Source: Sphyrna mokarran (Eukaryota). Taken from it: a stretch of 64,000 nt of DNA. The stretch spans positions 99,510,001 to 99,574,000 of the forward strand of contig JAGIQG010000009.1 of the NCBI GenBank assembly GCA_024679065.1. The letters are read 5' to 3'. Position 1 is the stretch's first letter; each line of letters starts with the position of its first letter. The notes under the pieces are model-generated. The model did not search any database, was not told where the DNA came from, and was given only the letters and a program-made list of their open reading frames with translations. Both the position numbers and the translations under genes were made by a program. Shown piece after piece: positions 10,583-63,146 of the stretch.

Positions 10583-10618
10583 CCGCTCCCTTCAGTTGTG
10601 CTTGCAGTTTTCCAATTT
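10583..10618 (-). CDS. 36-nt phase 1-1 micro-exon (E)IGKLQAQLKGA
   Basis: ttattcatacctgatttcag|AAATTGGAAAACTGCAAGCACAACTGAAGGGAGCGG|gtgagg; clear paralogue of exon 45366-45401 with the same length, phase and donor. Confidence 0.85.
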
Positions 10619-11429
10619 CTGAAATCAGGTATGAATAAGAACGTGAGTTTCGTGCACTGCAAGGTTGTACACATAGCAATTTGAAAGTAATTGTTTCCAC
10701 CGGGATGCATTGAACGTTCATTGATTTAAGCAGTTAACCAAATTGGAGTTTGGCTGATTTATGTATTTCCAAATAGAATCAGGATGAGCAAAAAGATTAC
10801 ATCAAATTTCCTTCTGACAGTCAGGGCAAAAAACTAAGGAGAAATCTATATCCCTTTTTGTCGAATAATTGGAGTGTCGAAATGCAAATTGTTTATGCTC
10901 CAAACAATGTAGCAGATATCATTTTTTAACATCGTTTTCATAATAAATTAACATTTATGTCAATGGATATTAAGTTGGATTGTTTTTGGAACTGATTGTG
11001 CAAATTAGCAATGTGTAAACATTAGTTTAAATTTTCATTACGGAGGGAAATTGATGCTAAAAAATTAGCCGCACATTAATCAAACAGGACTTGTTTGCAA
11101 TTGATCTCTAGATGTGGAAGCCCGACATCATATTTAACATGGCACCTTTTCAACATCATACGTTTTGCAGTGTTGCTCAAACGAAGTTCTGCATTTTATA
11201 TATTGTCTGCCAATTTTGCAGCATCAACTTTTGTTTTCATAAACTTGCATACTAATTGGGAATGCGCTGAAAATTCTTTATCACCAATTTAAACAAAACT
11301 CTAGAGAATATATTAAAATGTGAAAAACAGTGTGAAAGCATCTCTATTATCCAAAATCTGCACCGCATAATATATAACATTAAAGCAGAAAGTTTCTGGC
11401 ACCCTTTATTGCCAAGACTTTGTCGACTG

Positions 11430-11710
11430 TTGGGAAACGTCATCGAATCATATAATCGCACCAGTGGAGAAGGAGGCGATTTGGCATGTCTAGTCTGTGC
11501 CGACTCTCTACAGATCACATTACCAAGCCCTAACCCACGGATTTAACCCGCTAATGTCCCTAAACTACAGATCTTTGATCTGCAGAAGCAACGGGACACG
11601 CATGCACATTCGGACGGAACATGCAAACCCCACTCAGAAAGTCAATAAGGCCGCAATAGAACATGTTCCCTTGGTGCTGTGAGGCAACAGTTTTAATCAC
11701 TGTGCTCAAG
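11430..11710 (-). mobile_element. tRNA-derived SINE (HE1-like)
   Basis: Reverse complement begins gcacagtgattaaaactgttgcctcacagcaccaaggga...gtttgcatgtt, matching the SINE copies at 25853 and 36270. Confidence 0.75.
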
Positions 11711-12638
11711 CAGTAAATTTCCAAGAAAATGATCGGATTAATCCACTCAAGTGACGTAGATTTTATAACGACATGGCACTTCGCAATTGCTGCTTCAGCA
11801 CTGAAGGCTTGCCTTTTAGAAATGTGATGTTTTGTTCCATGAACTTGCACAATGATGACAAATTAAAACGAAGCTTAAATTTTCCTCTACATTTTCTTTC
11901 AACTATCGCTACACCCTCCCGTCCTCTTTTGTGGGTGTTTTCAATATTTTAAATTTCTGGTTTAGCACTTTACTCGACTGAGTTACGATTTCTCAGTGTA
12001 ATTCCTTCCAGAGTTGCGTCTTTTGCTCACAAGGCCTTGAGATGTCCGAAATAACTGTCCAGTCACAACTTATTTTGGCAGACATAGCGGAGGGGCTGTG
12101 GGTGAGAATGGATCTGTGTCGCTGGCGGTGTCCCTTCACTGCTTGAAGCATAATTTAGCCTATTAAGTCATCGTAGCTTGATTTCATGACCCTAATATTT
12201 AAATAATATGAAATGAGTGAAGTGCCGCAGTGAAAGCATGCAGATAGTTGACGTTATCCCAAAATTAGTGCATATAGAAAATCAAATAGGTGGGTAAAAA
12301 AATCTCGACAGTTACATATTTCAAGTTCTCTTTTATTTCTATTGGATATACTATAAATAGCTTAAGCATAACATTCTCCCTGACCTTGACCTCCAAACTC
12401 TATATGTGCTACCTATGGTAATCACATACTTTATTATTCGTCATAGTTTAAAGCAATTTTATGATTTATGTTGTTACTAAGATTTGCGAATGGTGGCATT
12501 AAAAAAAGTCACGATCTGGTAATTAGATGGGAACGTATTATAGTGATCACTGGCCAACAATTGCAAATATATGGTTAGATGTGGAATATGTGAATGATTA
12601 GAACAATATTAGAACAATAAATATTAATTATCAATTAC

Positions 12639-12665
12639 CAATATCTTTCACAAGCAGTTGTCTCA
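12639..12665 (-). CDS. 27-nt phase 1-1 micro-exon xRQLLVKDI
   Basis: tgacttttattacag|TGAGACAACTGCTTGTGAAAGATATTG|gtaatt; 23/27 identical to exon 63120-63146 with conserved splice sites. Confidence 0.85.
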
Positions 12666-13669: not shown

Positions 13670-16600
13670 CCATAAAACCATAAGATATAGGAACAGAATT
13701 AGGCAATTCGGCCCGTCATTTCTGCTCCACCATTCAATTATGACTAATATGATTGTTATCTCCATGCTCCTGACTTCACTCGCATCGCTTTCCCATTATT
13801 GATCTAGAATCCATATATTTATGTCTTGAAGACACCCAAAGACCTCGCTTCCACAGCCCTCTGTAGCAATGAGTTCCACAGATTTACGATCACCTGGCTG
13901 AAGACATTCCTCCTTTTCTCAGTTTTAAAGGACTGCCCCTTCAATCTGGGGTTGCGTCCTCTAGTATGTGTCTCTCTTAGTAGTGGAAACTTCCCCTCTA
14001 CGTCCACTCTATCTAGCCTCTCAGTACTCTGAAAATTTCAATTGCATCCCCGCTCATCCTTCTAAATTCCATCGAGTTTAGACACAGACTCTTCCGCCGC
14101 TCCTCATATGACAAGCCCTTCTTTCCTGGGATCATTGTTGTAAACCTTCTCTGGGCACCCCCACAGGACAGCAGATCCTTGCTTAGTTATGGAGCCCAAA
14201 ACTGCTCACAATATTCCAAATGTTGTCAGACTTGTATAGCCTTAGCATCCCTGCTCTTGTATACTAGTCCTCTAGAAATTAATGCTAACATTGACTTTGC
14301 CTTCCTAGCTGTCAACTGAACTTGCACATTAACTTTAAGAGAGTCTTGAACCAGGACTCATTAGTTCCGTTATTCTTCTATTTTCCGAACACTTTCCCCA
14401 TATAGAAAATATTCTACACCTCTATACTTCCTACCAAAGTGCATGACTTCATATTTTCCCACATTGAGTTCCAAGTGCCACTTCTCTGCTCACTCCCCTA
14501 AGCTGTCCACGTCATTCTGCAGTGTCCTCCCTTTCTCAGTACTATCTGTCAGTTTACATGGTTTCGTCGTCAACTTTAGCAACGATGCCCTCACTTCCAT
14601 CTTCCAGGTCATTCATGTATATAGGAAAAGTTGTGGTCCCAATATGACCCCTTTGGAACATCACTGGTCATTAGTTGACATACAGAAATGAACCCCATTC
14701 TCCATACACTCCGCCTTCTCTCTACCAAGCAAACTGCAACCATTGCCAGCACCTTGCCTCTAACACCATTGGCCCTTAGTTTATTTAGCAGCTTCACATA
14801 AGGTGTCTTGTCAAAGGCCTCCTGGTAATCCAAATAAACCACATCAACTGGCTCGCCTTTGTCTAACATCTTTGTTTCCTCTTCCAAGAATTCGAACACA
14901 ATTGTCAGACATTAACCAATTTGTTGAACCCGTGCTGACTGAGCCCTATTTTACCAGGCTTTTTTCAAGTATTCCGCAATTTCACCCTGAATAATAGACT
15001 CCAAGAATGCATCCACGATCGAGATCAGGCTAACTGGCTTCTAATGTTCCATCTTCTGCCTCCTTTTCTTCTTAAAGAGGGGCATTACATTTGCCCTTTT
15101 TAAATCCTCAGAGAACTTCCCCGTTTTCACTTTTCCTGAAATGTCACAACTAATGGCGTTGACAATATCCTTAGTTTTCTCCTTCAAAAAATTGGAGTAT
15201 TGTATAAGTCCAACTTCGGACCTTTCAGCTTCTGCTTGGTTCTGGTTGCTGCACTAAACTCTACCACCTGACTGCCTTAAAGTTCTAGAATGTTACTGGT
15301 GTCTTCCACCATGAAGGCTGGTACAAAGTATGAAAGCTGTTCCTCTGTCATTTCTTTGGCCCGTATTACAACTTGTCCAGCCAAATTTTCCAGTGATCCA
15401 AAGTCGATTCTTGCCTCTTACCTTCTGTATATCTAATAAAACGCTTAATTATTCTTTTTGTCACTAGATAGCTTTCACTCATAACTCTCCAGCCTTATTG
15501 TGTTATTTTTAGTTTGCCTTCTGTTTGGTTTTAAAAGCCTCCCATCTCTAACTTCCTACTATTCCGTTCCTCATGGTATTTGTTTTCTCTTTGCTTTTAT
15601 TATACCTGACTTCCCTTGTTAGCCATGGTTGCCCATCTTCCGCTTAACATGCTTCCTCTTCCTTGGATTGAATTTAGGTTCTCCTTCTGAAGTATCCCCC
15701 AAAACACCTGACAGATTTATTCCACAGTATTCCCTCCTAGGCCCTTTTTCCAGTTAAATCTGAACAGCTCCTACTTCATGATCTTGTAATTTCTTTTACT
15801 CAGTGGTAGCGCCATTACATTCGATTCCAACGCCTTTCTCAAACTTCAATGTTAACTCTGTCATGCTGTAGTCACACCGACCCCCGCACCCTCAGCCCCG
15901 GTGTCATAGAACTTAGAACATTACAGCGCAGTACAGGCCCTTCGGCCCTTGATGTTGCGCCGGCCAGTGGACCCTCTAACCTAAACTATTCCAATATCAT
16001 CCATATGCCTATCCACCGAACATTTGAATGCCCCCAAAGTAGGCGAGTCCACAACTGCTGCAGGCAGGGCATTCCACGCCCTCACCACCCTCTGTGTAAA
16101 GAACCTGCCCCTGACATCCGTCCTATAACTACCACCTCTTAATTTAAAGTTATGTCCCCTCGTGTTGGTCATCACCATCCGAGGAAAAAGGCTCTCACTA
16201 TCCACCCTATCCAGTCCTTTGATCATCTTATACGCCTCAATTAGGTCACCGCGTAACCTTCTTCTCTCTAATGAAAATAACCTCAGGTCCCTCAGCCTTT
16301 CCTCATAAGGCCTTCCCACCATACCAGGCAACATCCTGGTAAACCTCCTCTGCACCCTTTCCAATGCTTCCACATCTTTCTTATAATGCGGCGACCAGAA
16401 CTGTACGCAATACTCCAAGTGCGGCCACACCAGAGATTTGTACAGTTGTAACATAACCTCACGGCTCCTAAATTCAATCCCTCTACCAATAAAAGCTAAC
16501 ACACCGTACGCCTTTTTAACAACTTTATCAACCTGGGTGCCAACTTTCAAAGAGCTATGTACTTGTACCCCAAGATCCCTCTGCTCGACAACACTATTAA

Positions 16601-19600
16601 GGGTCCTTCCATTAGCCCTATATTTCATATGCCTGTTATCCTACCAAAGTGAATCACCTCACACTTATCCGTATTGAATTCCATTTGCCACCTCATGGCC
16701 CAGCTCTGCAACCTATCTATGTCCCTCTGCAAACTGTAACATCCATCCTCGCTATCTACAACTTCCCCCACTTTGGTATCGTCAGCAAATTTACTAATCC
16801 AACCCTCTACACCCTCATCTAGGTCATTTATAAAAATGACAAACAGCAGTGGCCCAAAACAGATCCTTGAGGTACACCACTTGTAACTGCACTCCAGGTT
16901 GAATATTTCCCATCAACCACCACCCTCTGTCTTCTATCAGCTAGCCAATTCCTAATCCAAACTGCTAAATCACCTTCAATCCCATGCATCTGCACTTTCT
17001 GCAGTAGCCTACCATGGGGAACCTTATCAAACGCTTTGCTAAAATCCATATACACTACATCAACTGCCTTACCCTTATCTACCTCTTTGGTCACCTCCTC
17101 AAAAAACTCAATAAGGTTTGTGAGGCACGACCTACCCTTCACAAAACCGTGCTGACTATCCCTAATCAATTTATTTCTCTCTAGATGCTTATAAATCCTA
17201 TCCCTTATAATTCTTTCCAAGACCTTGCCCACAACAGAAGTCAGGCTCACCGGTCTATAATTTCCAGGATGGTCCCTACTCCCCTTTTTGAACAAAGGGA
17301 CAACATTTGCCATCCTCCAGTCTTCCGGCACTGTACCTGTAGCCAACGACGACATGAAGATCAAAGCCAAAGGCTCTGCAATCTCCTCCCTAGCCTCCCA
17401 GAGAATCCTGGGTAAATCCCATCTGGCCCAGGGGACTTATCAATTTTCATACCCTCAAGGTTTGCTAACACCTCCTCCTTATGAACCTCAATCCTGCCCA
17501 GTCTACAACCTGGTATCGCAGTATTCTCCCTGACAATATTGTCTTTCTCCTGCGTGAATACTGACGAAAAATACTCATTCAGTGTCTCTCCTATCTCCTC
17601 AGGCTCCACGCACAACTTCCCACTGCTATCTCTGACTGGCCCTAATCTTGCCCTAACCAATCTTTTATTATTTATATACCTGTAAAAAGCTTTAGGATTC
17701 TCCTTAATCCTATCCGCCAAAGTCTTCTCGTGTCCTCTTCTAGCTCTTCTCAACTCCTTGTTTAGCTCCTTCCTGGCTAATTTATAGCTCTTCATTGCCC
17801 TAACTGAACCTACACGTCTCATCATTATATAAGCCTCCTTCTTCCTCTTTACCAGAGATTCAACTTCCCTAGTACACCATGGTTCCCTCACTTGACCACT
17901 TCCTCCCTGCCTGGCAGGTACATTCTCATTAAGGACATGCAGAAGCTGTTCCTTAAATATGCTCCACATTTCAGATGTCCCCAGACCCTGCAATTTCTAG
18001 CTCCACCCTATGCATCCTAAATCTCTCCTAATAGCCTCATAATTAACTTCCCCCCAGCTATAACTACTGTTATTCGGTATGTGCCTATCCCTTTCCATCA
18101 CTAAGGTAAACGTAACCGAATTGTGGTCACTATCACCAAAGTGCTCACCCACTTCCAAGTCTAACACCTGGTCTGGTTCATTACCCAGTACCAAATCCAA
18201 TATAGCCTCACCTCTTGTTGGCCTATCTACATACCGAGTCATGAAATCTTCCTGCACACATTGAACAAAAACTGACCCCTCTAACGTACTTGAACTATAG
18301 CTTTTTCAATCGATATTAGAAAAGTTAAAGTCCCCCATTACAACTACCCTGTTACTTTCACACCTATCCAGAATCAACTTTGCAATCCCTTCCTCTACTT
18401 CTCTGGAACTTTTTGGAGGCCTATAAAAAACTCCCAACAGTGTGACCTCCTTTCTTGTTTCTAATCTCAGCCCACACTACCTCAGCAGACAAGTCCACAT
18501 CAAACGTCTTTTCTGCCACCGTAATGCTGTCCTTAACTAACAATGCCACTCCTCCCCCTCTTCTACCACCACCTCTGCTCTGACTGAAACATCTGAACCC
18601 TGGAACCTGCAACAACCATTCCTGCCCCTGCTCTATCCATGTCTCTGAAATGGCTACAACATCGAAGTCCCAAACACCAATCCAGGCTGCAAGTTCATCC
18701 CCCTTATTGCGTATGCTCCTCGCATTAAAGTATACACACTTCAAACCACCCTCCCGTTTGCCACTATACTGCTGCGACCTAGAAACCTTATCCGTGACCT
18801 CCATATTCACATCCTCCTGTATACTGGCACAACAATTCAGGTTCCCATCCCCACCGAATCAGTTTAAACCCCCCCGAATAGCACTGGTAAATTTACCCCC
18901 CAAGATATTGGTACCTCTCCGGTTCAGGTGCATACCATCCCTCTTGTAGAGGTCCCACCTTCCCCAGAATGAGCCCCAATTATCCAAATACCTGAACCCT
19001 TCCCTCCTGCACCATCCCTTTAGCCACGAGTTCAAATGTTCTCTCTCCCTATTCTTTTCTATGCTATCCCGCGGCACAGGTAACAGACCAGAGATAACCA
19101 CTCCGTTTGTTTTAGCCCTAAGTTTCCACCCTAACTCTCTGAATTTCTGCTTTATATCCCCATCCCTTTACCTACCTACGTCATGGGTACCTACATGCAC
19201 CACAACTTGGGGCTGGTTCCCCTCCCCCTTAAGGATCCCGAACACTCGGTCAGAGATATCACTGACCCCAGCGCCCGGGAAGCAACACACCAACCGCGAA
19301 TCCTGCTCCTTCCCATAGACTCTCCTATCTATCCCCTTAACTAGGGAGTCCCCAATCACTAATCCAGATCTTTTCTTCCCCCTTCCCACCTGAGCATCAA
19401 GGACAGGCTCAACTCCCGAGACTTGCACTTCATGGCTTACCCCGGTTTTATCTTCATCCCCAACAACATCCAAAGCAGAGTACTTATTACGTAGAGGAAC
19501 GGCCTCAGGGGAACTCTGCACTGATCATAAGTTGACTGATCATGTCTGCTTCATTATGCATCACCAGACCCAGAAGTGTTCGTCCCCAGTGGGCTCCAGC

Positions 19601-20140: not shown

Positions 20141-20246
20141 GAAGTATCATTCTTCTGTTGAGGTGAAGCTGCTTCACTTATCTACATTCTGAAACGTATG
20201 TTCTGAACACTTATGTAAACAAATGTGAATTTGAATCAGTTCTTAC

Positions 20247-20273
20247 TGCACGCTTGAAGAAGTTGTTTGCATT
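20247..20273 (-). CDS. 27-nt phase 1-1 micro-exon (E)CKQLLQAC
   Basis: attctccctcaacag|AATGCAAACAACTTCTTCAAGCGTGCA|gtaaga; open, with the same size and phase class as the other exons. Confidence 0.65.
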
Positions 20274-22491: not shown

Positions 22492-22515
22492 CGACATATT
22501 CTTCGTCTATGCTCC
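22492..22515 (-). CDS. 24-nt micro-exon (G)SIDEEYV
   Basis: ctgtctgcttcattacag|GGAGCATAGACGAAGAATATGTCG|gtaaac; open in phase 1 (also in phase 2). Confidence 0.6.
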
Positions 22516-23774
22516 CTGTAATGAAGCAGACAGTATCGTAAGATATATTGAGCTTTCTATACAATATTCAGTGCCATAAGTTCCAGATATGTTAACTCTG
22601 GTGCTCTGACTCTCAGACATTGTGTGTAACTTCAGCATTTTGTCGTTAACTTTCAGCAAAAGAATGTCAATATATCCCATTTCATGTTGCAACGATATTC
22701 TTCTCACAACGATTCTAAGTATTTATGCGACCAAAATAATCAAAGTTGCATAATTGCCATTCAATGCTATTCCAATTTTCAATAATAGACCTGCGAGACC
22801 AATAGTGAGGTCAGTTGGCATCAATTTCCAAGTAGACTAAGCTACTATCGAAACTCAGTGGCAACACTGGTGCTGATGAAATCCGAACGAGTGGAAGTGC
22901 AGTTTGGTTTCTTTGACATCAGGACCGCCTTTTACATCAGACCCATATACTTAGGCATTCAAATTTGACGCAAATGAAACGGTACTGGCCGTGCACGATT
23001 CCTAGTGTTCGTCCTCCGGATATCCCGTTCAAATAACAATATTGGTGTAGCGTACACTGCAAGCAGTTTTTGAATTGCAGCTCGAGATTTATTGTTATTC
23101 CAAGATGTAAGCTTGCTGGCATGAGCAGTGCTCTATTTTTTTTGACAGCTCATAAATTGGGAATGAAAATCCCGAGGTCCGCCCTTCTGCTGGCGCAAAA
23201 TAACATGAACGTTTAAATGTACATTTTGCATAATATGAACATCATGCCATAGGTCCTGCAAAGAAAAGTGAAACTGAACATTTTATAGGAAGCACTGTGA
23301 ATTTTAAAATCAATGTTAAAAAAAGGTGAAAAATGGAGGATTTTGAGATCAAGAAGTCGCATTATCACAAGTTGTGTCCTTCAGGCGATGTTTAATTGGC
23401 TTGCATCTTATTCAGAATGATTGTGTCTCTCCATTTTCAACATAAAGGGTGTTAACAAAATCCAACAGATATTTTATGTAAGCACCGTATCGTATTAATG
23501 AGATGAGTTCCTTTCTTCATCAAGATCGATCATATTGTGATCTAACGGATAACGGTCGAGCCACATTGAAAAATCATTTCCCAGGAAACATTTCTGACCT
23601 CTCTAAAAATTGATGACCACAAAAACCTCCAATTATAGTTTCTCTAATTCATAAGGGATAACGTAATCTTCAAGTCTAGTCGGTCACACTCAAAATTGAT
23701 TGCCGTTAGCAGGCCTGACAGAATAAATTTTCGTCCTCCAAAATCCAACCATTTTGTGACAGAAAAATAAGGAT

Positions 23775-23850
23775 CACGTGCATGCACAATCTATATTTTT
23801 TCGATTAATAGATTTGGGAAGTTCCGAGGAAGTGAAAAATTAATTTGCAT
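23775..23850 (+). promoter_or_regulatory. Clustered E-box, NF-kB, PU.1-IRF composite (EICE) and octamer motifs
   Basis: CACGTG 23775-23780; GGGAAGTTCC 23816-23825; GAGGAAGTGAAA 23826-23837; ATTTGCAT 23843-23850. Confidence 0.55.
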
Positions 23851-24349
23851 CACAAAAGCCTATGTGGCCGCGTACTGATCTGCTGCTTTGAACATTCTGT
23901 CGAACTTCGCGTTTATGGCCGTTGAGGGAATGTCGTTCGGAAAATGATTCAGCCCAATAACACATTGAAAAACGATCTCTTAAAATAACATGTAAGAATG
24001 TAATTTTTGTTCAATCTGCTGGATGTCCTCTGCTGGATGTCCTCCTGATGATGGAAAGTACATATGGGAATAAATAATAATTTTGTTATGAGCACTGCAG
24101 TAATATGACCTTCATATGTGCTAGAATGTTCTCAGTAAAATTATATTTCTCGTTTACTGATGTGCCTCTATTAAAGTGCTTTACCTTTCCCGACGATCGG
24201 ATCATGGCAAATATTCATTGCAAGCAGCCTTGCCTGCTCGATGCACTGAGATATTATCTCAGTACTAAAGCATATGCAAATACAGAAATATTCGAATTAT
24301 GTTCAGGAATCGACAAACTCTGCGCTACTATCCACGTCTCATTGGCTTA

Positions 24350-26410
24350 AAATGACATCAGTTTATGGCAATTAATTCCATTGTTAACCAAAATGAGCAT
24401 TTTTCGCCAAAACGTACGACCTACCTGCACCACCATCCCTGAAGGGAAGAGTCTACAGAAAAAAAAATCCCTAAAATAAATCGCCATCTCCTTTACGGAA
24501 GGGAGATTGGCTTGTGCAATTTCTGCATCCTCTAGTAATGATAACATTTGGAAGCAGAAACATAATACCAGCTGCCAAACTGAGAAGTCCATTCAGCATC
24601 ATACATGTTTAATTGGTAATTTATATAATTTTAAACTGCAGTGAACTTGAACCCAATTTGCCCAGGATGTCTTCATTTCAGAATTAGTTGGGTGAAACTT
24701 GACTGAAGTGCTTCAGTACATTTATGCCCTTCCATACAAAAGGGGACCAAAGTTTACACTGCATTACCATTTATACACCATTTCACTTGCGTAAACAACA
24801 TCATTCGATTTGCCTCGTTAGTTATTTGCTGGCTCAGTACTAAGTTCATGTGATTCATGTGTCAGGACACCACGATATATGTTTACTTTAGATTTGTGTA
24901 ATCTCTTCATATTTAGATAACAGATTTTAATTCTGCTGCGACCATAGGCGTATTTACATTTGTCATTTTGAACTGCCTTTTCCAATTTTCCGCCCTTAGT
25001 TTCAACTATCTATCGTCCTTTGCATATCTCTTTCCAATTCACAATTTACTTTCTCCCTCATCTTTGTGTCATCAGAAACAAAAACGACCATAAATTGGTT
25101 TCACTGATATAGATTAATGTTTTAAAACCAATCAAATTGGGAATTGAATTAATGCATTTCCACAAAATGAAAATTGTTAGGTGATGTCGAATCGTCGTGC
25201 AGTTGCTAGCCAACAATGTCAATGTTACCACCTACGATGTGTAATTTTATTCCGTCCAATCACATTTGATGTGCCACCTTGTTAAATGCCTTGTGCAAAC
25301 CGAAGAATGCCATGTTCAAAATTCTCATTTGTCCACATTTTTGTCATTTCCTCAAATAATTTTAATGTATTAGTTAAACACGATATATCTAATGCCATGC
25401 CACATGCTTTTTGCCTGCATTGAGATTTTCTAGGTACACAATTTCCACATGTCAGATTTTAAAACGAATAGCTTGAAGATTCTTGTTTTCCGTCCTCGTT
25501 CTTTCATTAATCCGTTATTTTCTAATATGATGGGACGTTTTCAGGATCCGGGATAACATGGAATATCAAACTCAAAGCATTTGCTATCTTCACAGCCACA
25601 TATTTGATGATACCAGGCCAACTCCACCTGGTTTGATAGATTTACTTTAATTATATCAGTATCCTTTCCTTTCCAACTGCAACTGTGTCCTCGGTCGCAT
25701 TCACATCCCAATTCACAATGATTTCTGGTACTTTTATGTTAATCTACTCAAATGAGACGAATGCAAAACAAATTTTCATTTCCTTCTCAACTTTCTTGCT
25801 TTACAGTATGGATTTCCAAAATTCACACACTGGAGGTCGAATAATCATGTGAGCGGCACAGTAACACAGTGACTGCACTGCTCTGCCACCACAGTGCCAG
25901 CATTGCTGCCTCACAGCGTTAGGGATCGCGGGTTCATTTCTGGCCATGAGTCACTGTCAGTGTGCAGTTTGGCTACACCAAAACTGTAACCAGAACTATC
26001 TACGGGGTTTTCTTCTGGCTGCTCTGGCGTCCTAACAAATTTCCTACTAAAAGCCAGAAATGTGCATGATAAATTTATTGGTTATGCTAAATTACACATA
26101 ATGTCAGTGTAAATCAGCAGATATGACAGGGTGAGATTCTTCCTTGTACTATTTCGATGGGCCGAATTGCCTTCTACTACACTGTAGCATTTCTATGTTT
26201 ATACAATTTATTCTGTTCCCCTTTTTATTCCCGTAGAAACCATTACCACATGCTTCTGTATTCCGACCCAAATTTATCTTGTGCTCTATATTTTTTTTCC
26301 TCATTGGCATTTCTTTTTGCTTTCAAGTTCAGTTTTAACTTTCCCCCTGCCCCTGCTGTATGCCACACTGCATCTTTCATTCGGTTTATTATCTTTCACT
26401 GATTTAGCTA
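24350..26410. repeat. Old duplicated block, copy 1 (decayed CR1 plus SINE); paralogue at 34780-36770
   Basis: Collinear matches, for example ctcctttacggaag...cttgtgcaa...tctagtaatg (24488 vs 34909), ttgagattttctaggtacacaat (25420 vs 35809) and ttttattcccgtagaaacca (26223 vs 36593). Confidence 0.9.
25853..26195 (+). mobile_element. tRNA-derived SINE (HE1-like)
   Basis: gcggcacagt...gctgcctcacagcgttaggga...ggttca head and gatgggccgaat CR1-like tail. Confidence 0.75.
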
Positions 26411-27659
26411 GCAACTGCCAGTGTGTCATTTCTGATTATTTCGTTATCACTGGGATGTACATTTTCTGAGCGTTGTGAAGCATTTTCCAAACTGTTTGCT
26501 ACAGCATTTCTACCAAATCGTTAATCTAATATCGCAGTTCGCTGTCACTGGCACCACCTTCTCGCCTCGGTAAATTTCCGATTTAAGTTTGGAACATTTG
26601 TTTTGACCCAGTTTTACCTCTCTGAGGCGAATGTAAAAGCCAACAATGTTGCCATCGCTGCTATCATGTAGTGCCTTTCTTATATGATCAAGACTGAAAC
26701 ATGTCTCCTTCTAGATTATCACACGTAATTTAAATGCCCCTTGGTTGTCTGTAGAACCTGCAGTTGCACGAAACAGTCATCACAGTACTTTCATAATTGA
26801 ACTTCCTTCACCAATGTAAGTTGTTCCACTGTATATTAAAATAAACTATATCCTTTGGTGTTTCAAAATAACCACCCCCACACCCCCGCACAATTCATCG
26901 CTTCTTCATGTCTCTTCCTACTGTTATAAGGCAAATCCCGAACAAAATGATGGACACAAAAAAAAGAAACATTCTCCAGTTTATGAAGATAAAGGTAAAT
27001 TTTAACTATGTCACTTATAATCTTCTTTGACCTCAGCAAGGCGGACCGAACAAATTTCAGTCTTCCAAATTGTAACTGATTTTGCTGTAGCGACGACAAG
27101 AATCACGTGCGTGTATGGTGTATATTTATTTGAATAACGAACTTCTGTAATCTCCGAATTTGGGGAAGGAAAAAATGTATGTCATCAGAAAATTTACGTG
27201 GCCGTTGTGCGAATCTAAATTCTGCCGAACTTTGTAAAGATGTCTGCTCAGGGAATGTAATTCGGAAAATGATTCAGATACGTCATATAGTGAAAAATGA
27301 TCTCTTAAAATAACAATGAAGAGTACAAAATTTGTTGTACCTGGTGTTATTCCTTTTGACGGCGGAATGTACATGTAAGAATAAATAATAGTTGTATTAT
27401 GAACAATGAGGTTAATATTCATTGTTCCTAGTTTTATTTCTGAACATTGCATTGCTGCTGTACTGATGCACCTCCGTTGAGATGGTTTGAAGACGGGCGT
27501 TTTCCGGCCATCCAGCCATGTGCTGGATTCATTGAAAGGAGCCCGATCTAATCGATTTACTGAGATCTTATCACAATACTAAAGAGCTTCGAGATAGAAC
27601 AAACAATCGAATTAGGTTCAGAAGTCGAGCAAGTATACGGCACGTGGCTAATCCGATTA

Positions 27660-28565
27660 AAAATAAGTTTCCGGCCATCGACTGAACTGTTGTCCTGAAT
27701 TAGAATCATTTTTCCAATCGACCAGAACGAATAATCACATCGGACACAACTATACCTGAACACCGATCACGACTCTCACCGTAGCCAAAGCTCGACAAAA
27801 TGCATTCATTCCAAGAAACTTGGAAAACGTGCAGGCCTGCAGGTGAGAATGAAACAATGCGATCCCACGACCCCACTCCCCAGTTTACTTTTTGGAAATG
27901 TCCAATCTCTGGAAAACAATCTAGACAAACTTAGAGCCAGAAAATTTTCCAATGAAAACTGAGGGATTGTTTTGTAGTCTGCTTCACGAAGATATCGTTC
28001 CCTTCTGCTTCACTGGACTGCGCCGGGCAAGTAAAGGTCTTCTGAATCCATTGAATGGGCTATACAGCTCCCTCTGGCAATGCTAATTGATGTACTGTCT
28101 GCTTCCTCATCAGCACCTTGCGGTGCCTCGACGTGGCAACACTGACACCTTTCTGCTCCCCAGACCTACAATAACTGACTCCAAAATGCCTGTATTCTTC
28201 GAGAGTTCACCTCTGTTATCCTGACGGCAATTCACATCTCACCCCATACTGATGTGAAGATCGCGCCGGGCAAAATATACGCAACTACGAATAGCCTTGA
28301 GACGAAACTTTCGGCGGCCATGGTCATTGTCGCCAAGACTCCAAGTTACCACCAACACATCTCCTGTTCCATTTGAGGCCCAAACATCCTATACCAATGC
28401 TACACAAGTATCAAACACGCTTATCACTCTATCGATCGCCCACTCGTTGGTAAATCAGACCACAAGTCTGTACTCTTACCCAATACTTACAGAGAAAAAG
28501 TGAAGCGGGAGCGTCCATCAAAAAAAAAAGTGCAATATTGATCTGAGAAATCGGACAATCGGGAC
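27660..28565 (+). mobile_element. Rex1/Babar LINE endonuclease fragment (one copy in each tandem unit; also about 29630-30530, 31485-32365, 33405-34750)
   Basis: Decayed GKRAGLQVR, PLPSLLFGNVQSLEN, CFTE, CSPDLQYLTLKFRPY.LSREF and GKSDH motifs characteristic of the Rex1 APE domain. Confidence 0.88.
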
Positions 28566-31500
28566 GCGCTGAGATGAATGTGAAAGTGAATCGAAATTCA
28601 ATTGCTGCTGCAGTATAGTGCATTTCTTACTTGATCATGAATAAAAGCTGTCTCTTTCCACATTTTCATTATAATTTAAACGCCTCTCTGGCTGTGTGTA
28701 GAACCTACAGTTGGACGGAACAGTCATTACAATTCTTTCACAATTCAACTTCCTTCACCAATGTGAGTTGTTCCACTGTATACCAGAATAAACTATCATC
28801 CCCTCCACAATTCATTCGATTTTTCATGTCTCTTCCTACTGTTATGAGGCAAATCCCTCACAAATGATGAACAGAAAAAAAAACCAGAAACATTCACTAG
28901 TTTATAAAGACAAAAGTGTATTTTGAATCTGCGGTCTCACTCATAAACTTCTTTGACCTCAGCCACGCTGACTGAACAAATTTGAGTGTTCGAAATTTTA
29001 ACCGATTTTGAGACAGCGACGACAAGAATCAGATGCGTATATGGTGTATATTAATTTGATTAACGGACTTCTGTAATCTCCGATTTTGGGGAAGAAAAAA
29101 TGTTTCCATCATAAAAGCTTACGTGGCCGTTGTGCTAATCTACTGAATTGAACTTTGCAAAGATGTCTGCTCAGGGACTGTAATTCGGAAAATGGTTCAG
29201 ACACGACATAGAGTGAAAAATTATCTCTTACAATAACAATATTGTTAATATTGAATAATAATTGTTAATATTTCAATAATATTGAAAAGTATAATATTTG
29301 CTGTACCTGTCGTTATTCCTTTTGACGGTGGAATGTACATTAAGAATAAATAATAATTGTTATGAGCATTGAGGTAATTTAATATTCATTGTTCCCATAT
29401 TTATTTCTCAACATTGCATTGCTGGTGTACTGATGTACTTCCGTTGAAGTGCCTTATAGACATGAGTTTTCCGGCCATCCAGCCATGTGTTGGATTCATT
29501 GACAGGTGCCTGATCTAATCGATTTATTGATATCTTATCACAATATTAAGGTACTTCGAGATAGAACAAACATTCGAATTAGGTTCAGAAGTCGAGTAAG
29601 CATGCAGCACGTGGCCAATCCGACTACAAGGAGGTTTCATGCCATTGATTGAACTGTTAACCTGAATTAGTGTAATTTTGCCAACCGACCGGTGCGAATA
29701 ACCTTATTGGACACAACTATACCCTTAACACAAAAAACTACTCTCACCTTTTCCCTGCTCGAAAATATGCATTCCTTCCAGGAAACTTGGGAAACGTGCA
29801 GGTCTGCAGGTGAGAGTGAAACAATGCGATCCCACCACTCCACTCCCCAGTTTACTTTTTGCAAATGTCCAATCTCTGGAAAACCATATGGACAAACTTA
29901 GGGCCAGTCTCAATTCCCAATGAGTACTGAGAGACTCCTTTGTACTCTGTTTCACGGAGATATGGCTTACTCCTGCTTCACTAGATTGCGCCAGACAACC
30001 TAGAGGATTCTCAATCCATTCAATGGACCTTATAGCTGCCTCTGGCAATGCTAATTGATGTGCGGTCTGTTTCCTAATCAGCACCTTGCCGTGCCTCGAC
30101 GTAGCAACACTGACACGTTTCTGCTCCCCAGACCTACAATATCTGACGCTAAAATTCCGCCCCTACTGCCTTTCTCGAGAGTTCACCTCCATTACCCTGA
30201 CGGCAGTTCACATCTCGCCCCGTGCTGATGTGAAGATTGCGCTGGCCAATATATACACAATCAGGAATAGCCTTGACACGAAACTTCCGGAGACTACGGT
30301 CATCGTTGCCCGGGATTCCAAGTTACCACCAACACGTGTCCTGTTCCACTTGAGGCCCAAACATCCCATACCCGTGCTACACAAGTATCAAACACGCTTA
30401 CCAGTCTATCGACCGCTCACTCGTTGGCAAATCAGACCACAAGGCTGCACTCTTGCCCAATGCTTACAAAGAAAAACTGAAGGGGTAGCGTCTATCAAAT
30501 AAGTAGTCGGAGAAATTGGATGATCGGGGCTCGCTGAGATGAATGTGAAAGTGAATCATAATACAATCTCTGTTGCAGTATAGTACATATCTTACTTGAT
30601 CTTTCACAGTTGAACCTGCTTCACCAATGTGAGTTGTTTCACTGTATATTAGAATAAACTATCACCTTTGGTGTTTCAAAATAGCCCCCCCCATCCACAA
30701 TTCACTCGATTTTTCAAGTCTCCTCCTACTGTTATGAGGGAAATCCCTAACAAAATGATGAACAGAAAAAACGGAAACATTCTCCAGTTTATAAAGACCA
30801 AGGTATATTTTAAATCCACCCTGTCACCCATAAACTTCTTTGACCTCAGCAGGGCGGACTGAACGAATTTGAATCTTCGAAGGTTTAACCGATTTTGTGA
30901 CAGCGACGACAAGAATCACGTGCGTATATGGTGTATATTCCTTAGATTAACGGACATCTGTAATCTCCTCATTTGGGGAAGAATAAATAAGTTTCCCATC
31001 ACGAAAGCTTATGTGGCCGTTGTACTAATCTACTGAGTTGAACATTCTGCCGAACTTTGCAAAGATGTCTGCTCAGGGAATTCGGAAAATGATTCAGACG
31101 CGTCATACAGTGAAAAATGATCTCTTAAAATAACAATGAAGAGTGCAGAATTTGCTGTACCTGGCGTTATTCCTTTTGACGGTGGAATGTACATATAACA
31201 ATAAATAATAATTGTGTTATGAATAGTGAGGTATTTTAATATTCATTCCTCCTAGATTTATTTGTGAACATTGCATTGCTTGTGTACGGATGCACCTCCG
31301 TTGAAGTGCCTTATACACACGAGTTTTCCGGTCATCCAGCCATGTGCTGGATTCATTGAAAGGCGCCAGATCTAATCGATTTACTGTGATATTATCACAG
31401 TACTAAAGTACTTCGAGATAGAATATACGTTCGAATTAGATTCAGAAGTCGAGCAAGTATGCGGCACGTGGCTAATCCGACTAAAAATAAGTTTCCGCCC

Positions 31501-33898: not shown

Positions 33899-34472
33899 TA
33901 GGTACAGTACCTGTAGGTACTGTACAAAACTCTAGTGCGGCCGCACTTGGAGTATTGTGTGCAGTTCTGGTCCCCACATTATAAGAAGGATGTGGAGGCA
34001 TTGGGGAGGGTACAGAGGAGGTTTACCAGGATGTTGCCTGGTATGGAGGGCAGGTCCTATGAAGAGAGGTTGAAGGATTTGAGGTTGTTTTCGTTAGAAA
34101 GGAGGCGGCTAAGGGGGGATCTTATTGAAACATATAAGATAATTAGAGGTTTGGATAGGGGGGACAGTGATAGCCTTTTTCCTAGGATGGAAAAAGCTAG
34201 CACGAGGGGACACAGCTTAAAATTAAGGGGTGATAGTTATAGGACGGATATCAGAGGTAGGTTCTTTACCCAAAGGGTGGTTCGGGAGTGGAATGCCCTG
34301 CCTGCAGCAGTTGTAGATGCGCCAAGTTTGGTGGCGTTAAGAGGTTAGTTGATAAGTATATGGAAGAGAAGGGAATGGTTTAGTTTGGAGGGGCATTGCT
34401 TTTTATATTGGTCGGCGCAACATCGAAGGCCGAAGGGCCTGTTCTGTGCTGTAATGTTCTATGTTCTATGTT
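33899..34472 (+). mobile_element. Young 5'-truncated CR1 inserted in tandem unit 4
   Basis: RPHLEYCVQFWSPHYKKD...RRLRGDLI; (GTTCTAT)n tail; 8-bp target-site duplication AATACCTG at 33891-33898 and 34473-34480. Confidence 0.96.
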
Positions 34473-34779
34473 AATACCTGACGCTAAAATGCCGCCCCTA
34501 CTGCCTTCCTCGAGAGTTCACCTTCGTTACCCTGACGGCAGTTCACATCTCACCCCATACTGATGTGAAGATCGCGCTGGGCAAAATATACACAACTACC
34601 AATAGCCTTGAGACGAAACTTTCGGAGGCCACGGGCATTGTTGCCGGGGACTCCAAGTTACCACTAACACGTCTCCTGTTCCACTTGAGGCCCAAACATC
34701 TTATACCAATGCTACACAATTATCAGACACGCTTACCACTCTATCGACCATATAATATAAATGTATATAAATCGTTTAC

Positions 34780-36770: not shown

Positions 36771-36814
36771 TTTATAAGCCTTCCTGGATTCCTGGGATGA
36801 CTTATTTAAGACTT
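36761..36814 (-). CDS. Candidate 54-nt phase 1-1 exon (E)VLNKSSQESRKAYK*VK with in-frame TAA
   Basis: ttttctgaatgttgttcag|AAGTC...GTAAAAG|gtaata; TAA at 36768-36770; the donor end overlaps the duplicated-block boundary. Confidence 0.4.
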
Positions 36815-37208: not shown

Positions 37209-37244
37209 CTGCTTCTTCACATCGGCGTTTTAATTCTTTCATTT
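37209..37244 (-). CDS. 36-nt phase 1-1 micro-exon (E)MKELKRRCEEA
   Basis: ttctgccttttgttttacag|AAATGAAAGAATTAAAACGCCGATGTGAAGAAGCAG|gtatga; very strong splice sites. Confidence 0.85.
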
Positions 37245-41014: not shown

Positions 41015-41041
41015 CTTTTTCTTTTGAACGCAAAATTTGCG
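41015..41041 (-). CDS. 27-nt phase 1-1 micro-exon (A)QILRSKEK
   Basis: gcgtttatttttctgcag|CGCAAATTTTGCGTTCAAAAGAAAAAG|gtaagt; consensus donor. Confidence 0.85.
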
Positions 41042-45365: not shown

Positions 45366-45401
45366 CAGCAGACCGCAGCTGTGCGAGTAGCTTTTCTATT
45401 T
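45366..45401 (-). CDS. 36-nt phase 1-1 micro-exon (E)IEKLLAQLRSA
   Basis: tgtctatctctattaccag|AAATAGAAAAGCTACTCGCACAGCTGCGGTCTGCTG|gtgagg; paralogue of 10583-10618. Confidence 0.85.
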
Positions 45402-46107
45402 CTGGTAATAGAGATAGACATGAATAACAGTTTGCTTTATTGCAAGGATTGAAGACGTCATGACATCTCTATTAAAACATAACAACAGAAACAATGCACA
45501 ATTGGGGGGGCGGGTAGTGAATTCACTTCCTGCAAACGCACACATTTAAGGTTATATTTTTTCCAACTGCAAAGTCCGTCAGCCGGGGATAAAGATTATT
45601 GTCAACGAGCTCTTGCCGGCTTGTTCAACTACCAACCAAAAATTCATACCCAATACTTCTGATTTCGTGGGTCATCAGAACTAAAACTCCTTACGAGTGC
45701 AAGATACTGTGTGAAATTTGTTCCCACATATTTTTTACAATTCCGACTTTTTCCTTGAGTGAACCGTTGAACCGTTAATTGATGGTTACATATTGTCATT
45801 AAAGAAAATCACAAATATAGCGACATCTGTTAAAAAATGTGGGTGCCGATTAAAATGGGTGGGAATTATGCATGCCCCGTTCTGCTCCTAACTAAGGTCA
45901 GTCGTGAGAAAGACGAAAGTGTGGTTCACCGATCGATTTGATCTCTAACATTTGACAATATTTTTCACAGGTATTTGTCTTGATTGGCAAATTTAGCATC
46001 TTCACTTTCACGTAACTGGTTACACCAGTTCAGGATCGCAGGGAGACGGAATCTGCGTGTGAGAAGCATTTGGCATAGATATAGTTTGGCCCAGGACAAA
46101 CACTCAG

Positions 46108-48564: not shown

Positions 48565-51500
48565 CGTCAATCTTTTGGAAACGGGACGCTTTTGACCCTT
48601 CGATGGGAAACACGGTCCAGTATATGGGAAGGTGCATTATTTTTTGGGAACTAAAAGCAATGTGGCAGATGAAAAGCAAACTTTTTTTCTGACCACTTTT
48701 AGATCACCCGTATTTTCTATTATTTGCAATTCAACTTTCCTGGTGGCACCAGGTATTAAAAGTTTCTAGACATTGGCGGACATTCTTCTGGAACTGAGAC
48801 GATGCTGGTTTTACTTAAAACGTTGGGAGACAGAAGATTATATTATGCGTTTCCAGAAAAAGAACAGTGCAGAGCAAGATCAACTTAACGCGAGGCTGTT
48901 CCACTCAAAAGTCTGATAGCAGCAGAGAAAAACGTTTCTTGATTCAGTTGACACGTGATCTCAGATTTTTGAATCATTCTCCCGGTGAAAGAAAGTGGTA
49001 GGGAGTATGTGTGGAGATGAACATGCTGGCTGTCTTTGTGTTGCAGCAGTGTCAGTGGATGGGAGGCTGAAATGACTGATGGACCGGACTTCGTTCACGA
49101 CCCTTTGTAGGTTATTGTGGTTTTGGACAAAGCAGGAACCATATCAAGCTGTAATACAATCGTAAAGAATACTCCCCTCGTGGCATCTGAAAACATTGGT
49201 AAGAGTTACAGCAGATGTGCCACGATTCCGTAGTCTCCTGTGAAAGTTGAAGCTTCATCTGCTTTCTTAACTAGAACATTAACAAAGCAGGTTGTCGCTG
49301 ATACGGTCATCTAAAAACTTGCAGCTCTCGCCCATTTTTACTCATTCCCATTGATATAAACAGGGGCATTACTCCACTACGCTTTCTGAAGTCGATAATT
49401 ATCTCCTTTCTTTGATGACATTGAGCGAGAGATTACCATCCTCAGACAAGAACATCATTTTCTCTACCTCATTCCTGTGCTTTCTCGTTATTGTTTCAGA
49501 TCTAACACACACTGATTGATGGTGTCATCAGCAAACTTCAAAATCGAGTTGGAGGGCAATATGGCCACGAGTCGTAGGTGCATAAGGTGTATATTAACGG
49601 GCTACAAGTCTTGAGGATAGTTGTGGAGGAGATGTTGGTGTCTATCCTTACAGATTGCGGTCTATGGGTTAGGACATTCGAATCCATTCGCAGAGGGAGG
49701 AGCTGAGCCCCAGGCCATGAAGTTGGGCGCTGAAGCCCAGACTGTAGTCAATAAATTGCAGTCTGTCATACGTGTCTTTCTTATCTAGGTGTTCCAGGGC
49801 TAAGTGTAGGACCAGTAAGATGGGACCTTCTGTGGACCTGCTGTGGTGGTGGGCAAACAATAGTAGTTTCAGGCAATCTCGGAGGACAGAGATAATTTGC
49901 GCCATGACTAGCCGTTTGGAGAGTTTTATCAGCATGCTGGAACAGAGTACAATGGAAAAACGTTAAAAATTTTACCAATGTGGCCCCTTATCTGGATGTT
50001 CTCCACATAAGATGTTCTCATTACAGATAAAATAAGGAAAGTGGAAATATAGCACCTAGAGGAAGTTCTAAGTTATTTTTCGAGGACCAAATTGTTGTTC
50101 TTAATACTTAAACTGAAATAATTCCATCAAAACCATTAAGAGCGGAAATTTGTGAATATCACTGATCATAAGCCACTGCAGGAGTTACTAGGAGGCGACA
50201 AAGTCATTCCCTTGATAGCATTGACCAATATCCAGTGGGCTTCACAATTGGCCTCCTATACCCATCGATTGGAACACTAACCAGGAGGCCGCGTGGCAAA
50301 CACAGATGCTGTGTAAGTTGCCTTTGGCAGACACTCCACTGATAGTAGGAAAAGTGGAACAGATACAATGGCCAAGAACCTCCTGGGTACCCTTCCGATA
50401 ACTACAAATTGTATTTGTACTTGGACATAAAATAATCCATTTTTTGCAAACCTTCAGACATTAGTACTCTCCCATTTCCAGCTGTATTGAAAGAGAAGAG
50501 GGCAACTCATCGTAGAAAACGGTTTACTGCTATTGGGGGAACAAGACATTTTTGTGAGTTAGAGCTGCTGTTCTATACTGGCTGGACTACTCACGAACAA
50601 GATGAAGTGTACAAAATGAAGACGTTGGCAAGAAGCAATGTTTGGTGATCCTGAATGAAAGCAAGCATATCTACGCTTCTAAAACAGAAACAGCAAAGTC
50701 GGAATGGAAAGAAAAGATATTGCCATTGGCTGCTCACCTACAGCGATGAAAATGGCTCCTTAAAACATAGATTAGGTTTTACTTGGATTCTGTAGGCTTA
50801 TTCAAGATCCCAATGGCTCAAGTCATGGTCATTGCCCAGACTAAGACGATTGACAAAAATAAGACGTGTCTAACCACCACGACAGTAACGGTCGAGAATT
50901 TGTGCACTCCGTTGCAACATATGGCATCCTAGACGTACTGGTATGTGAAAATGGAACATACTTTGCCAGCCCTCAGTTAAACGGGATCATGAAGTCGCAT
51001 GGCCTTCAAAATACATTGATGACACATTGCCATGCATTACCGATAAGCTTCTTGGAGAGCGCGATCCAAATGCTAAAAGATAGTTTACAAAATACATCTG
51101 GCAGCCTCAATGGATATCAGGTTCTCTCCTTGGTGAGTTGATTACAGGACAAATCATACACCATTATGGTAATAGCGTTCCAGAATTGCCCATACAAAGA
51201 CAACGGCGCTGTAGATTGATCTTGATCTTGCTCAGAGTGGGGAAATGTGGAAATTCAGCATCATACGCAATGCAGGGTTCGCAACAGCAATAGACGGGAG
51301 AGACATTTGGCGGCTGGTGAAAATGTAATGGTGACCAATTTCCTAAATTGTGCTGCATAACTACCAAGGAAAGTTGAATCCTACACAGATTCGTTATCCT
51401 GCAAAATACGCTTTGGAATTCCAAACATCTGGATCAGATGCAGGCCTTGAAATCACAGTTCGTTCAGAGGCCAATTATGCCCAGAGTGCTGAGAACCAAA

Positions 51501-59959: not shown

Positions 59960-61050
59960 TTCAGAGCAGTGGTTATGAGGAGAGGTTAACTAAACTAATT
60001 TTGTGTTCATCGGAAAGATGGAGGGTCAGAGAAGACCTGGCAGAGGTCTACAAAATTATGACAAGCATTGACAGAGTGGATATTGTATAAATAAAAGAGG
60101 TCCGATGTTCAAAGTGAAAATGGGAAAGTTTAAGGGGCATGTTAGATGCAAGTTAGATTTCACGTAGAAATCGATGGATGTCCGGAAAGCGCTGCCAAGG
60201 GAGGTGGTGGAATCAATCACAGGAGCAGATTTTAAGAGGCACCTGGTTGAGTACACGATTAGGGAGAGAACAGAGGCATGTGAATCGAGTAATGGTAAAA
60301 AAAAAACTTTATTTGGTGCATGGTGTTCGGCATAGAGACTGAGGGCCAAATGGTCTGTTCCTTGCTGTACTTGTTTTGTGTTATTTAAGTACGTAGATGC
60401 AACGGCATATAAAGAAGGCAAATGGTTTCTGAACCCTCATAGCAAGAGGATTTCAGCATAGGAATAGGGAATCTTTTTTGTAATTTTATAGCGCATTGTT
60501 GAGGCCATACCTGGTGAATTGTGCACAGTTCTGGTTTCTTTATCTGAGGAAGGTTGTCCTTGCAACAGTAGAGTACTGCAAAGTTAATGAGGATGCTTCC
60601 TGGAATGGTAAGCTGTCACATGAGGAGAAATGAAGTCGATAGGATTGTGTTCATTTGAGTTTAGACAAGTTAGAGTGGATGTCATGGAATCTTAGAAAAT
60701 TCTAACAGAGTTAGTCAAGATAGATTTAGAAAAAGTGTTCCAGATGGTGCGGTAGTCCGGAACTAGATGTCATAGTGGGAGGATAAGGAGTAAACGTTTT
60801 AGAAATGAGCTGAGGAGCAATTTCATCACTGTGAGCGTGGAGAATCAATACAATTCATTACTACAAAAAGCAGTTGAAGCCAAAACATTGCGTGATTGAA
60901 AAATAACAGATATATCAATTGGTCCATCAGATCAAGGACTATCTGGCGAAGATGGAATCAAGATATTGGTTTGATAATCGGACATGTTCAAAATGAATGG
61001 TGGAGTGGGTCTAAAGGGCCTAATGGCTTATCCTTCGATGTTCTATGTTC
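59960..61050 (+). mobile_element. Two CR1 3' fragments (59960-60380 and 60400-61050)
   Basis: YEERL...DLAEVYKIM and LYSALLRPYL..CAQFW remnants; gttctatgttc tail at about 61040. Confidence 0.82.
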
Positions 61051-61629
61051 CTTTGAATGAGCTTTGATTTAATTGCAGACTGAAATGTTGTCCTGAATTC
61101 TGGACGCAACCTCCCATGGGTCGTCAGCCTGCTAGCGCAGCAAAGTCCCTAGACTGAACTACAGGTGAAAGGCGGAGGCGGTGGAAAGTGGGAGGTATAG
61201 GTAATGGGTGAGACATCCGTTGAAAAGATGGGGGAAACTCTATGCTACATCACCGGAAAAGAGGGCTCATTTCCAAAATAACAAAGTGTCATCCAATGGA
61301 GGTCCGCCCACATCCCTTTCCCGTCGGAATGAAGAACCGATCATTTTCCACTGTTCAGGGCTCACAAATTCCTTCTGCCAGTACAGAAACGGAGACTGGC
61401 CGGGAAAAATCCCACGGTGTACAATAATTGATTACTTAGTGCCTACAATTGGTTAGGAGTGAAACTTTACTCATCCGAACACATCATCGCTTTGAGGTGA
61501 AGGCAGGTCAGAATGCATATGGTAGACAATTCCTTTTGTTTTACACTTGCCCCTTTCATTTCACTAGAAATCGCACCAGCAGGCACTTGTTAACTCCTTG
61601 CGCTTTTCACAAGTAACTTCTTACGTTTT

Positions 61630-62470
61630 TTTAAAATTCATTCCTGGAATATGGGTGTCACGACTGGTCAGCATTTAATGCCCATATCTCGTTACTCTTG
61701 CGAAGGTGATGGTGAGATGCTTTCTTGAATCGCTGCAGCCCACATGATTTGGGTTGACTAACAACACAGACAGGCAGTGATTTCCACGATCTTGACCTGA
61801 CGACTGCGAAAGAATTGTGATATATTTTCAAGTCAGGATGGTGAATATCTGGGAAGGAAACTTGCTGGTGGTGGTGCTCACATGTACCTGTTGCCATTAA
61901 CCTGTTTTGATGGAAGTAGTCGTGCGTTTCGAAGTTGCTGTCTAAGGATAATTATTGAATTGCTACAGTGCATCTTGTAGATAGTACGTACTGCTACTGC
62001 TGAGCGTTGGTGGTGGACGGCGTGGATGTGTGTGATGTCTATCAAGTAGACTGCTTCGTCGTGGATGCTTCTTGAGTGTTTTTGGAGGCGCACACATCCA
62101 GGTAATTGGAGAGTATTCCATCCCACTCGTGATATGTGCCTCGTAGGTTGTGAATAGGCTTTTGAGTGTCAGGCGGTGTATTCCTGTATTCCTGGCCTCC
62201 GATCTACTCTTGTAACCATAGTTTACACGGCAAATCCAGTTGCGTTTCTGGTCAATAGTGTGGGATTGAATGATGGAAACACAATTGAAAGTAAATGGAC
62301 TGTGGTTAGAGTGCCTCTAGTGATAGTCATTGCATGACATTTGTTTGGCATGAATCTTCCTTGCTATTTGTCAACGGAAGCTTGGATAGGTTCAGAACTC
62401 TTTACATTTGAACCAGAAGGGAATCAGTATCTGAAGAATGGCGCTGAACATTGTTGTCATCATCAGTGAA
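61630..62470 (-). mobile_element. LINE 3' fragment (CR1/L2 clade, different family)
   Basis: ORFs 61658-62126 show IHAVHHQRSAVAVRTIYKMHC and RSWKSLP...LQRFKKASHHHL RT-tail motifs. Confidence 0.78.
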
Positions 62471-63119
62471 CCCAGATGGCGCTGAATTGAAATGGTTGCC
62501 TGTTCACAGCAAGTTCTTCTGTAAATGTCATGATTTTATCTTTGGGAGAGAGTTTGCCTACTGAGTGACTTGCTCTGATTGTTCAATGCTGATGGAGTTA
62601 TCTGTCCTGTTCAGTACTGAATGTAATGTTCATATAAAATACTCCGGAAACAAATGGCAAAACAACTCCAAGAATGAGTTGCACACATCTTTAATATCTT
62701 TAGTAGCAAATTAAAATATTAGATAATTTAGTAGAAAAAGTGGATAAAATAGGAGCATGCTGGTTTCCTTGAGTATTACTTATTTATAATTAGGTTAGAA
62801 ATTAACAGATTTGTTATGATTTTCATACTGGTTCTAAAATGAGTCTTTAGAGATTTATACATACGTACTACAATCTGCATGGTATAATCGCGTAATCCAG
62901 TTTCAAGTGACGTTGAAGTAAAGCGAGTTATTACAATGCTTGTAATGTTTAGTTAGCAGCTTTCCAATTGTTCATGCGATTTATAAAATAAAATGCCACT
63001 CTCGAAGCATTATATAGAGAACCAGCCTACTGCACCGGTAATGTCATACTAATAAGTTCAAAGGAAAAGGACATACAAAATATAATGGACCATAAGATAA
63101 TGTATTCTTTGTCAATTAC

Positions 63120-63146
63120 CGGTATCTTTCAAAAGCAGTTGTCGCA
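63120..63146 (-). CDS. 27-nt phase 1-1 micro-exon xRQLLLKDT
   Basis: atgacttattacag|TGCGACAACTGCTTTTGAAAGATACCG|gtaatt; paralogue of 12639-12665. Confidence 0.85.

Follow-up and report, generated by a model that had tools for sequence, protein, structure and literature searches.

A 64,000-nucleotide (nt) stretch of the genome of the shark Sphyrna mokarran (the window; positions 99,510,001 to 99,574,000 of contig JAGIQG010000009.1, assembly GCA_024679065.1) carries on its minus strand a series of predicted exons that alternate between 27 and 36 nt in length and together encode a heptad-repeat polypeptide. Judging from the sequence, the window is probably the central part of a single large gene on the minus strand. 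Its product would include a long alpha-helical coiled coil, in which a 21-residue module of three heptads is specified by a 27-nt and a 36-nt exon. The ends of the gene lie outside the window. A preliminary description of this DNA had reported an exon pair that was duplicated long ago. The duplication was upheld by the present analysis, but the pair is not isolated: between its two copies there is a third, more diverged 27/36 pair, and the heptad array runs continuously through all three.

An alternating array of very small predicted exons

The six exons of the array, all of phase 1-1, are listed below in transcriptional order. Splice scores were ranked among 19957 AG..GT segments overall and among the 239 open segments of 27 nt and the 235 open segments of 36 nt.

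63120..63146, minus strand: 27-nt exon A2, which encodes residues 1-9 of unit 1; splice rank 168/19957 (weak)
45366..45401, minus strand: 36-nt exon B2, which encodes residues 10-21 of unit 1; splice rank 14/19957
41015..41041, minus strand: 27-nt exon C, which encodes the first half of unit 2
37209..37244, minus strand: 36-nt exon D, which encodes the second half of unit 2
12639..12665, minus strand: 27-nt exon A1, which encodes the first half of unit 3; splice rank 523/19957, the lowest of the six
10583..10618, minus strand: 36-nt exon B1, which encodes the second half of unit 3; splice rank 23/19957

The order A2-B2-C-D-A1-B1 gives exon lengths of 27-36-27-36-27-36, a strict alternation in which every exon is in phase 1, and 189 coding bases are distributed over 52.5 kb. 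The introns measure 17718, 4324, 3770, 24543 and 2020 nt in order, the first and last values agreeing with the 17.7 and 2.0 kb given earlier for the introns within the two outer pairs. Exons C and D were chosen by splice score, before their heptads were examined. With a splice score of 12.1, C ranked first of the 239 open 27-nt segments (the next scored 3.5) and second of all 19957; it also has the leucine and lysine found at positions 4 and 7 of the other units. D ranked first of the 235 open 36-nt segments for splicing, and second of 235 in BLOSUM similarity to B1 and B2.

Duplication of the exon pair and selection on its product

Exons A2 and A1 are identical at 23 of 27 nt, both within AG..GT segments, and the nearest 10 nt match at nine positions on each side, as the reported near-identity of their splice flanks had implied. 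A self-comparison with blastn aligned the two over 60 nt at 85% identity (E 4.8e-11), the sole match between the two regions, and none of 300 shuffled queries made from either A exon reached 22 matches. The reported match between B2 and B1, its translation and the shared gtgagg ends also proved correct: both exons have the form AG..GTGAGG, with 23/36 nt and 8/12 residues identical. Taken alone, this nucleotide match is within chance, as 61/300 and 23/300 shuffled queries reached at least 23 matches. The homology of the B pair rests instead on the equal length of the AG..GT segments, the eight shared residues, the placement of differences at third codon positions (7 of 13 differences, with 5 of 9 changed codons silent) and the identity of the 50 nt upstream (27/50, a value reached by none of 1844 control acceptors). 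Phase 1 provides the only open frame common to both B copies. The second-best match to B1, at 29840-29875 (22/36), was rejected; it is without a donor and falls inside a tandem unit derived from a LINE (long interspersed nuclear element).

As judged from their sequences, the exons form a duplicated pair under protein-level selection. Across the 19 whole codons of the A and B pairs, the proportions of synonymous and nonsynonymous differences were 0.59 (pS) and 0.19 (pN), corresponding to dS of 1.17, dN of 0.22 and dN/dS of approximately 0.19 (Fisher p=0.005). This ratio and the unalignable introns support the earlier proposal of an ancient duplication followed by purifying selection. The introns had been described as faintly alignable. 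Beyond the short flanks they are not even faintly so, remaining at the level of shuffled controls: local alignment in four 0.8-kb intron comparisons gave scores of 29-37 against shuffle means of 30-36, and the best scores of longer comparisons (53 and 49, against null maxima of 46-48) were marginal and non-collinear, the best being AT-rich. Such a loss of similarity is what neutral decay predicts at this silent-site divergence.

The long A2-B2 intron had been explained by the insertion of LTR (long terminal repeat) and LINE elements. The LINE content was confirmed, as fragments of CR1 LINEs make up at least 2.0 of the 17.7 kb (tblastn with the window's own CR1), and the following remnant lies in the same intron:

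50140..51138, plus strand: decayed LTR-retrotransposon pol remnant (ribonuclease H end and integrase)

The integrase-like part (50863-51138) was supported by an Atlas match to rve (0.94) and weakly by Pfam, in which the nearby RT_RNaseH match reached just E 0.14; a search of PDB with the pol remnant gave no relevant match and was uninformative. A short intron may plausibly have grown into this one, but such growth is unproven, because the two within-pair introns cannot be aligned with each other. A further segment bears on the history of this intron:

45956..45982, minus strand: putative relic of an A-type exon, lacking AG/GT and situated 555 nt upstream of B2

This segment matches A1 at 21/27 nt (reached by 1/300 shuffles), or at 27/37 when the downstream flank is included (0/300), among seven queries tried; it matches A2 at just 17/27, and its wider flanks are unalignable. 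It could be either a dead exon or a chance match. In the former case, B2 was perhaps not originally partnered by A2, and the long intron would not simply be an inflated short one.

Upstream of both A exons (12666-12685 and 63147-63165, minus strand), a short TGAC-containing motif is kept approximately 10 nt before the acceptor, and the pyrimidine tracts are poor; the motif is possibly a splicing element. The A exons combine weak splice scores with the best-conserved flanks, and this combination hints either that their inclusion is regulated or that a short conversion tract is present.

A predicted coiled-coil rod of nine heptads

Joined in silico, the six exons encode 63 residues with no stop codon, which divide into three units of 21 residues, or nine heptads. 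Unit positions 4, 11 and 18, which correspond to one heptad position, are hydrophobic in all nine cases (shuffle p 8e-5), and L4, K7, E10, L14 and A21 are invariant. Units 1 and 3 share 15/21 residues; unit 2 shares 5/21 with either. A test that is unbiased by the choice of invariants was made by defining four core positions from the A-B units and applying them to C-D, in which four of five hydrophobic residues fell on the core (shuffle p 8e-4). A period of 3.5 residues was also detected (p 0.006). The combination of L4 and K7 occurs in 3/241 open 27-nt segments and the three B-type invariants occur in 3/237 open 36-nt segments, which are exactly the six exons, a result that is partly circular because the invariants were derived from them. 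The hydrophobic seam of the rod is regular, though it is not an ideal zipper. Most likely, the encoded polypeptide acts as a dimerising coiled-coil spacer.

Two additional candidates were considered within the D-A1 intron, the first of them a doubtful exon:

20247..20273, minus strand: doubtful extra exon F, 27 nt, phase 1; splice rank 3/239 (score 2.7)

F has 4/9 residues in common with D in register, and its addition alone destroys the 3.5-residue period (p 0.38). Candidate E (22492-22515, minus strand, 24 nt, phase 1) was set aside for its weak donor and because it breaks the alternation. Together, E and F, both of moderate splice score, retain the period (p 0.011), and they may yet belong to the array. 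Near 8943, a candidate terminal exon was discarded because it is the antisense of a CR1 endonuclease fragment.

Comparison with known heptad-exon genes

Tails of chicken BG proteins are encoded by 13-36 small heptad exons of 21 or 24 nt (PMC4046983), and BG1 alleles vary by a four-exon repeat that has been attributed to unequal crossing-over (PMC5043582). In butyrophilins, short heptad exons are few and of variable number, and are placed between the transmembrane (TM) and B30.2 regions (PMC6790196, PMC8813856); the family has been reported in cartilaginous fishes (PMC12841164). The array resembles chicken BG in having a long heptad region assembled from many tiny exons, six of them with nine heptads in the window, and in its probable exon-block expansion, the four-exon repeat of BG1 being comparable to the four-exon spacing of the outer pairs here. 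It differs from BG in that its exon ends are off the heptad ends and its introns are 2-24.5 kb long. With the butyrophilins (BTN and BTNL) it shares the short heptad exons, which are few in those genes, whereas here at least six are spread over at least 52 kb and the array is open-ended upstream. Coiled-coil repeats of 21 residues and three heptads that map to exons are also found in the stalk of CD23 (FCER2), in which each of three to four repeats has one 63-nt exon and the stalk adjoins a lectin domain. The window differs in having no lectin exon.

The same one-gene array of micro-exons encoding a coiled coil might instead belong to a protein unrelated to butyrophilins and BG, such as the stalk of a lectin or scavenger receptor or a cytoskeletal or centrosomal rod. 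Compatible with this proposal, the window holds nothing that identifies the family, and the CD23 stalk has repeats of equal length. A Pfam scan of open stretches of at least 62 residues covered 121/121 on the minus strand and 107/128 on the plus strand, the 21 others being antisense to LINEs at 13.8-19.9 kb; at credible E-values it yielded retroelement domains only and no immunoglobulin (Ig)-family match, and four additional weak matches (E 0.004-0.01) were judged to be chance. Scanning the window with motif patterns for B30.2, Ig and lectin domains gave just two chance matches on the plus strand, Rfam returned 0 matches, and a PDB profile search with the array returned three chance matches (E 3.4-7). 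A protein-database search (proteins of 80-2000 residues) that used an alignment of the exon peptides as query produced 105 candidates, none with E<=10, and was uninformative, since the exact product itself scored approximately E 300 in a local power test. Arrays of very short heptad exons are, in contrast, a documented hallmark of BTN and BG genes (PMC4046983, PMC6790196, PMC8813856), and we regard an unrelated protein as rather unlikely.

One gene or two

The preliminary description allowed for either one gene with an internally repeated module or the tails of two tandem paralogues. The first option is favoured, because the second would require a gene end, a promoter and upstream exons within the 24.5-kb D-A1 interval, and because the 27/36 alternation and the heptad phase continue unbroken across it. 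This interval consists mostly of LINEs and intronic tandem duplications, with a few kb of unique sequence, and the only domain-coding segments that the Pfam scan found between the pairs were retroelement pieces. It is improbable on these grounds that A2-B2-C-D form the tail of one gene and A1-B1 belong to a second tandem paralogue, even though A-B recurs and C-D is not seen again within 10.5 kb after B1, strong acceptors with early stops occur between D and A1 (e.g., near 23255), and BG genes are arranged in tandem clusters (PMC8813856).

One of the A-B pairs could be an alternative or disused module, either mostly skipped or left as the orphan of a partial duplication. The weak splice scores of the A exons, though their flanks are conserved, and the possible dead A-type copy at 45956-45982 would fit such a history. 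Both copies nonetheless have intact AG/GT boundaries and an open frame, and with dN/dS near 0.19 at dS of approximately 1.2 these features show that both were selected for most of their history, making a disused module an improbable explanation. It is very improbable that the matches arose by chance or derive from a dispersed repeat, a reading that has largely been refuted inside the window. Although the B match alone is within nucleotide-level chance, the A match (E 4.8e-11), the codon-position bias and the heptad statistics argue otherwise, no LINE match overlaps any of the six exons, and their flanks are unalignable within the window.

Several points weigh against a single gene built from 27/36-nt coiled-coil modules and against its relationship to BG and butyrophilins. 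All the exon junctions are sequence predictions, and the vertebrate weight matrix used in the splice-site scan was crude. In BLOSUM similarity to A1 and A2, exon C ranked just 9/239. The second core position (K, L, A in each unit) is imperfect, and the 10.5 kb that follow B1 yielded no C-like exon, although one was expected there. Candidates E and F and the A-like relic may indicate that the history of the array was less tidy than the strict alternation, and small exons of other kinds may conceivably be present in the D-A1 interval. BG exons are 21 (sometimes 24) nt long and encode one heptad each, whereas here 27 and 36 nt together encode three heptads, and no Ig, TM or B30.2 exons were found in the 64-kb window. 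BG genes have a single IgV domain and a TM segment upstream of the tail and no B30.2, and butyrophilins have an IgV-IgC ectodomain followed by a TM segment. The array is not assigned to BG or to BTN, because its exon sizes are not those of BG and because the Ig, TM and B30.2 parts would lie outside the window. Of the RING, B-box and coiled-coil parts of TRIM proteins, the coiled coil alone would have its equivalent in the window. Motif and Pfam scans detected no B30.2/PRY-SPRY exon in the 10.5 kb after B1; as introns in this gene reach 24.5 kb, such an exon is possibly past the edge.

A proposed route of array growth

Under the one-gene interpretation, the phase-1 boundaries of all exons would allow any single exon to be gained or lost without a frameshift. 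A change of just 9 or 12 residues would put the heptads out of phase, and a change of both together (9+12) would leave them in phase, such that selection would be expected to preserve whole pairs. The pair would thus be the surviving unit because heptad phase, rather than reading frame, constrains copying. Growth of the array would most likely occur by unequal crossing-over in the long, repeat-rich introns, a process that is visibly active in the tandem units of the D-A1 intron. The four-exon spacing from one A exon to the next suggests that the last visible event was the copying of a block with a four-exon period (A2-B2-C-D to A1-B1-...), equivalent to 42 residues, and this event would have been old enough for the introns to lose all similarity. 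By analogy, the rod may serve as the dimerising spacer of a butyrophilin- or BG-like protein that probably terminates in B30.2, in which case rod length would set the distance from the B30.2 domain to the rest of the molecule.

Duplication of an exon pair followed by intron decay is ordinary, and the micro-exon design appears to be a variant of the BG/butyrophilin heptad-exon arrangement. Less ordinary are the size of the exons, which are too small for usual annotation, and a duplication unit that was apparently set by heptad phase and not by frame. A tentative extension is that the window belongs to an undescribed giant butyrophilin/B30.2-type gene of cartilaginous fishes. Its rod would consist of three-heptad bricks of two exons each (27+36 nt) and would have been enlarged in four-exon blocks, and its weakly spliced, flank-conserved 27-nt exons would be regulated and thereby tune the length or heptad phase of an immune sensor. 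If so, the gene would be a counterpart of chicken BG that follows a different exon grammar. A butyrophilin/B30.2 link, if true, would also mean that very long heptad tails are not peculiar to bird BG, and would offer a tractable case for the function of tail length. No published account of such a shark gene was found in the literature searched, the coverage of which was incomplete.

Other features of the window

The GC content of the window is approximately 38% and CR1-type LINE pieces are numerous, in keeping with the CR1-like LINE-rich long introns described for the whale shark (10.1101/443036). The main features of the D-A1 intron are as follows:

15984..19524, minus strand: near full-length, broken CR1-type LINE (Pfam Lipase_GDSL_2, Exo_endo_phos and RVT_1)
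23600..36774, strand unassigned: intronic tandem duplications, with four approximately 1.9-kb units 85-87% identical and an older copy at 64-67%

The CR1 element encodes an esterase (GDSL) open reading frame 1, an endonuclease and a reverse transcriptase, and is split into eight open pieces. Two larger phase-1 open segments on the minus strand, at 21363-21542 (180 nt) and 41400-41450 (51 nt), have fair splice scores with neither coil character nor a family match, and are probably due to chance. The four tandem units of approximately 1.9 kb occupy 26622-34749, each containing, on visual inspection, an apparent LINE fragment, with no Pfam match. No array exon was found inside the intronic tandem duplications, nor was a copy of D found at the matching place of the older one. 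The last of the four units is broken by a CR1 3' end (33919-34470) that adjoins a short tandem repeat of 15 nt. The older duplication, in which 23600-26406 corresponds to approximately 32800-36774 (64-67%), predates the four-unit expansion and ends approximately 435 nt before exon D.

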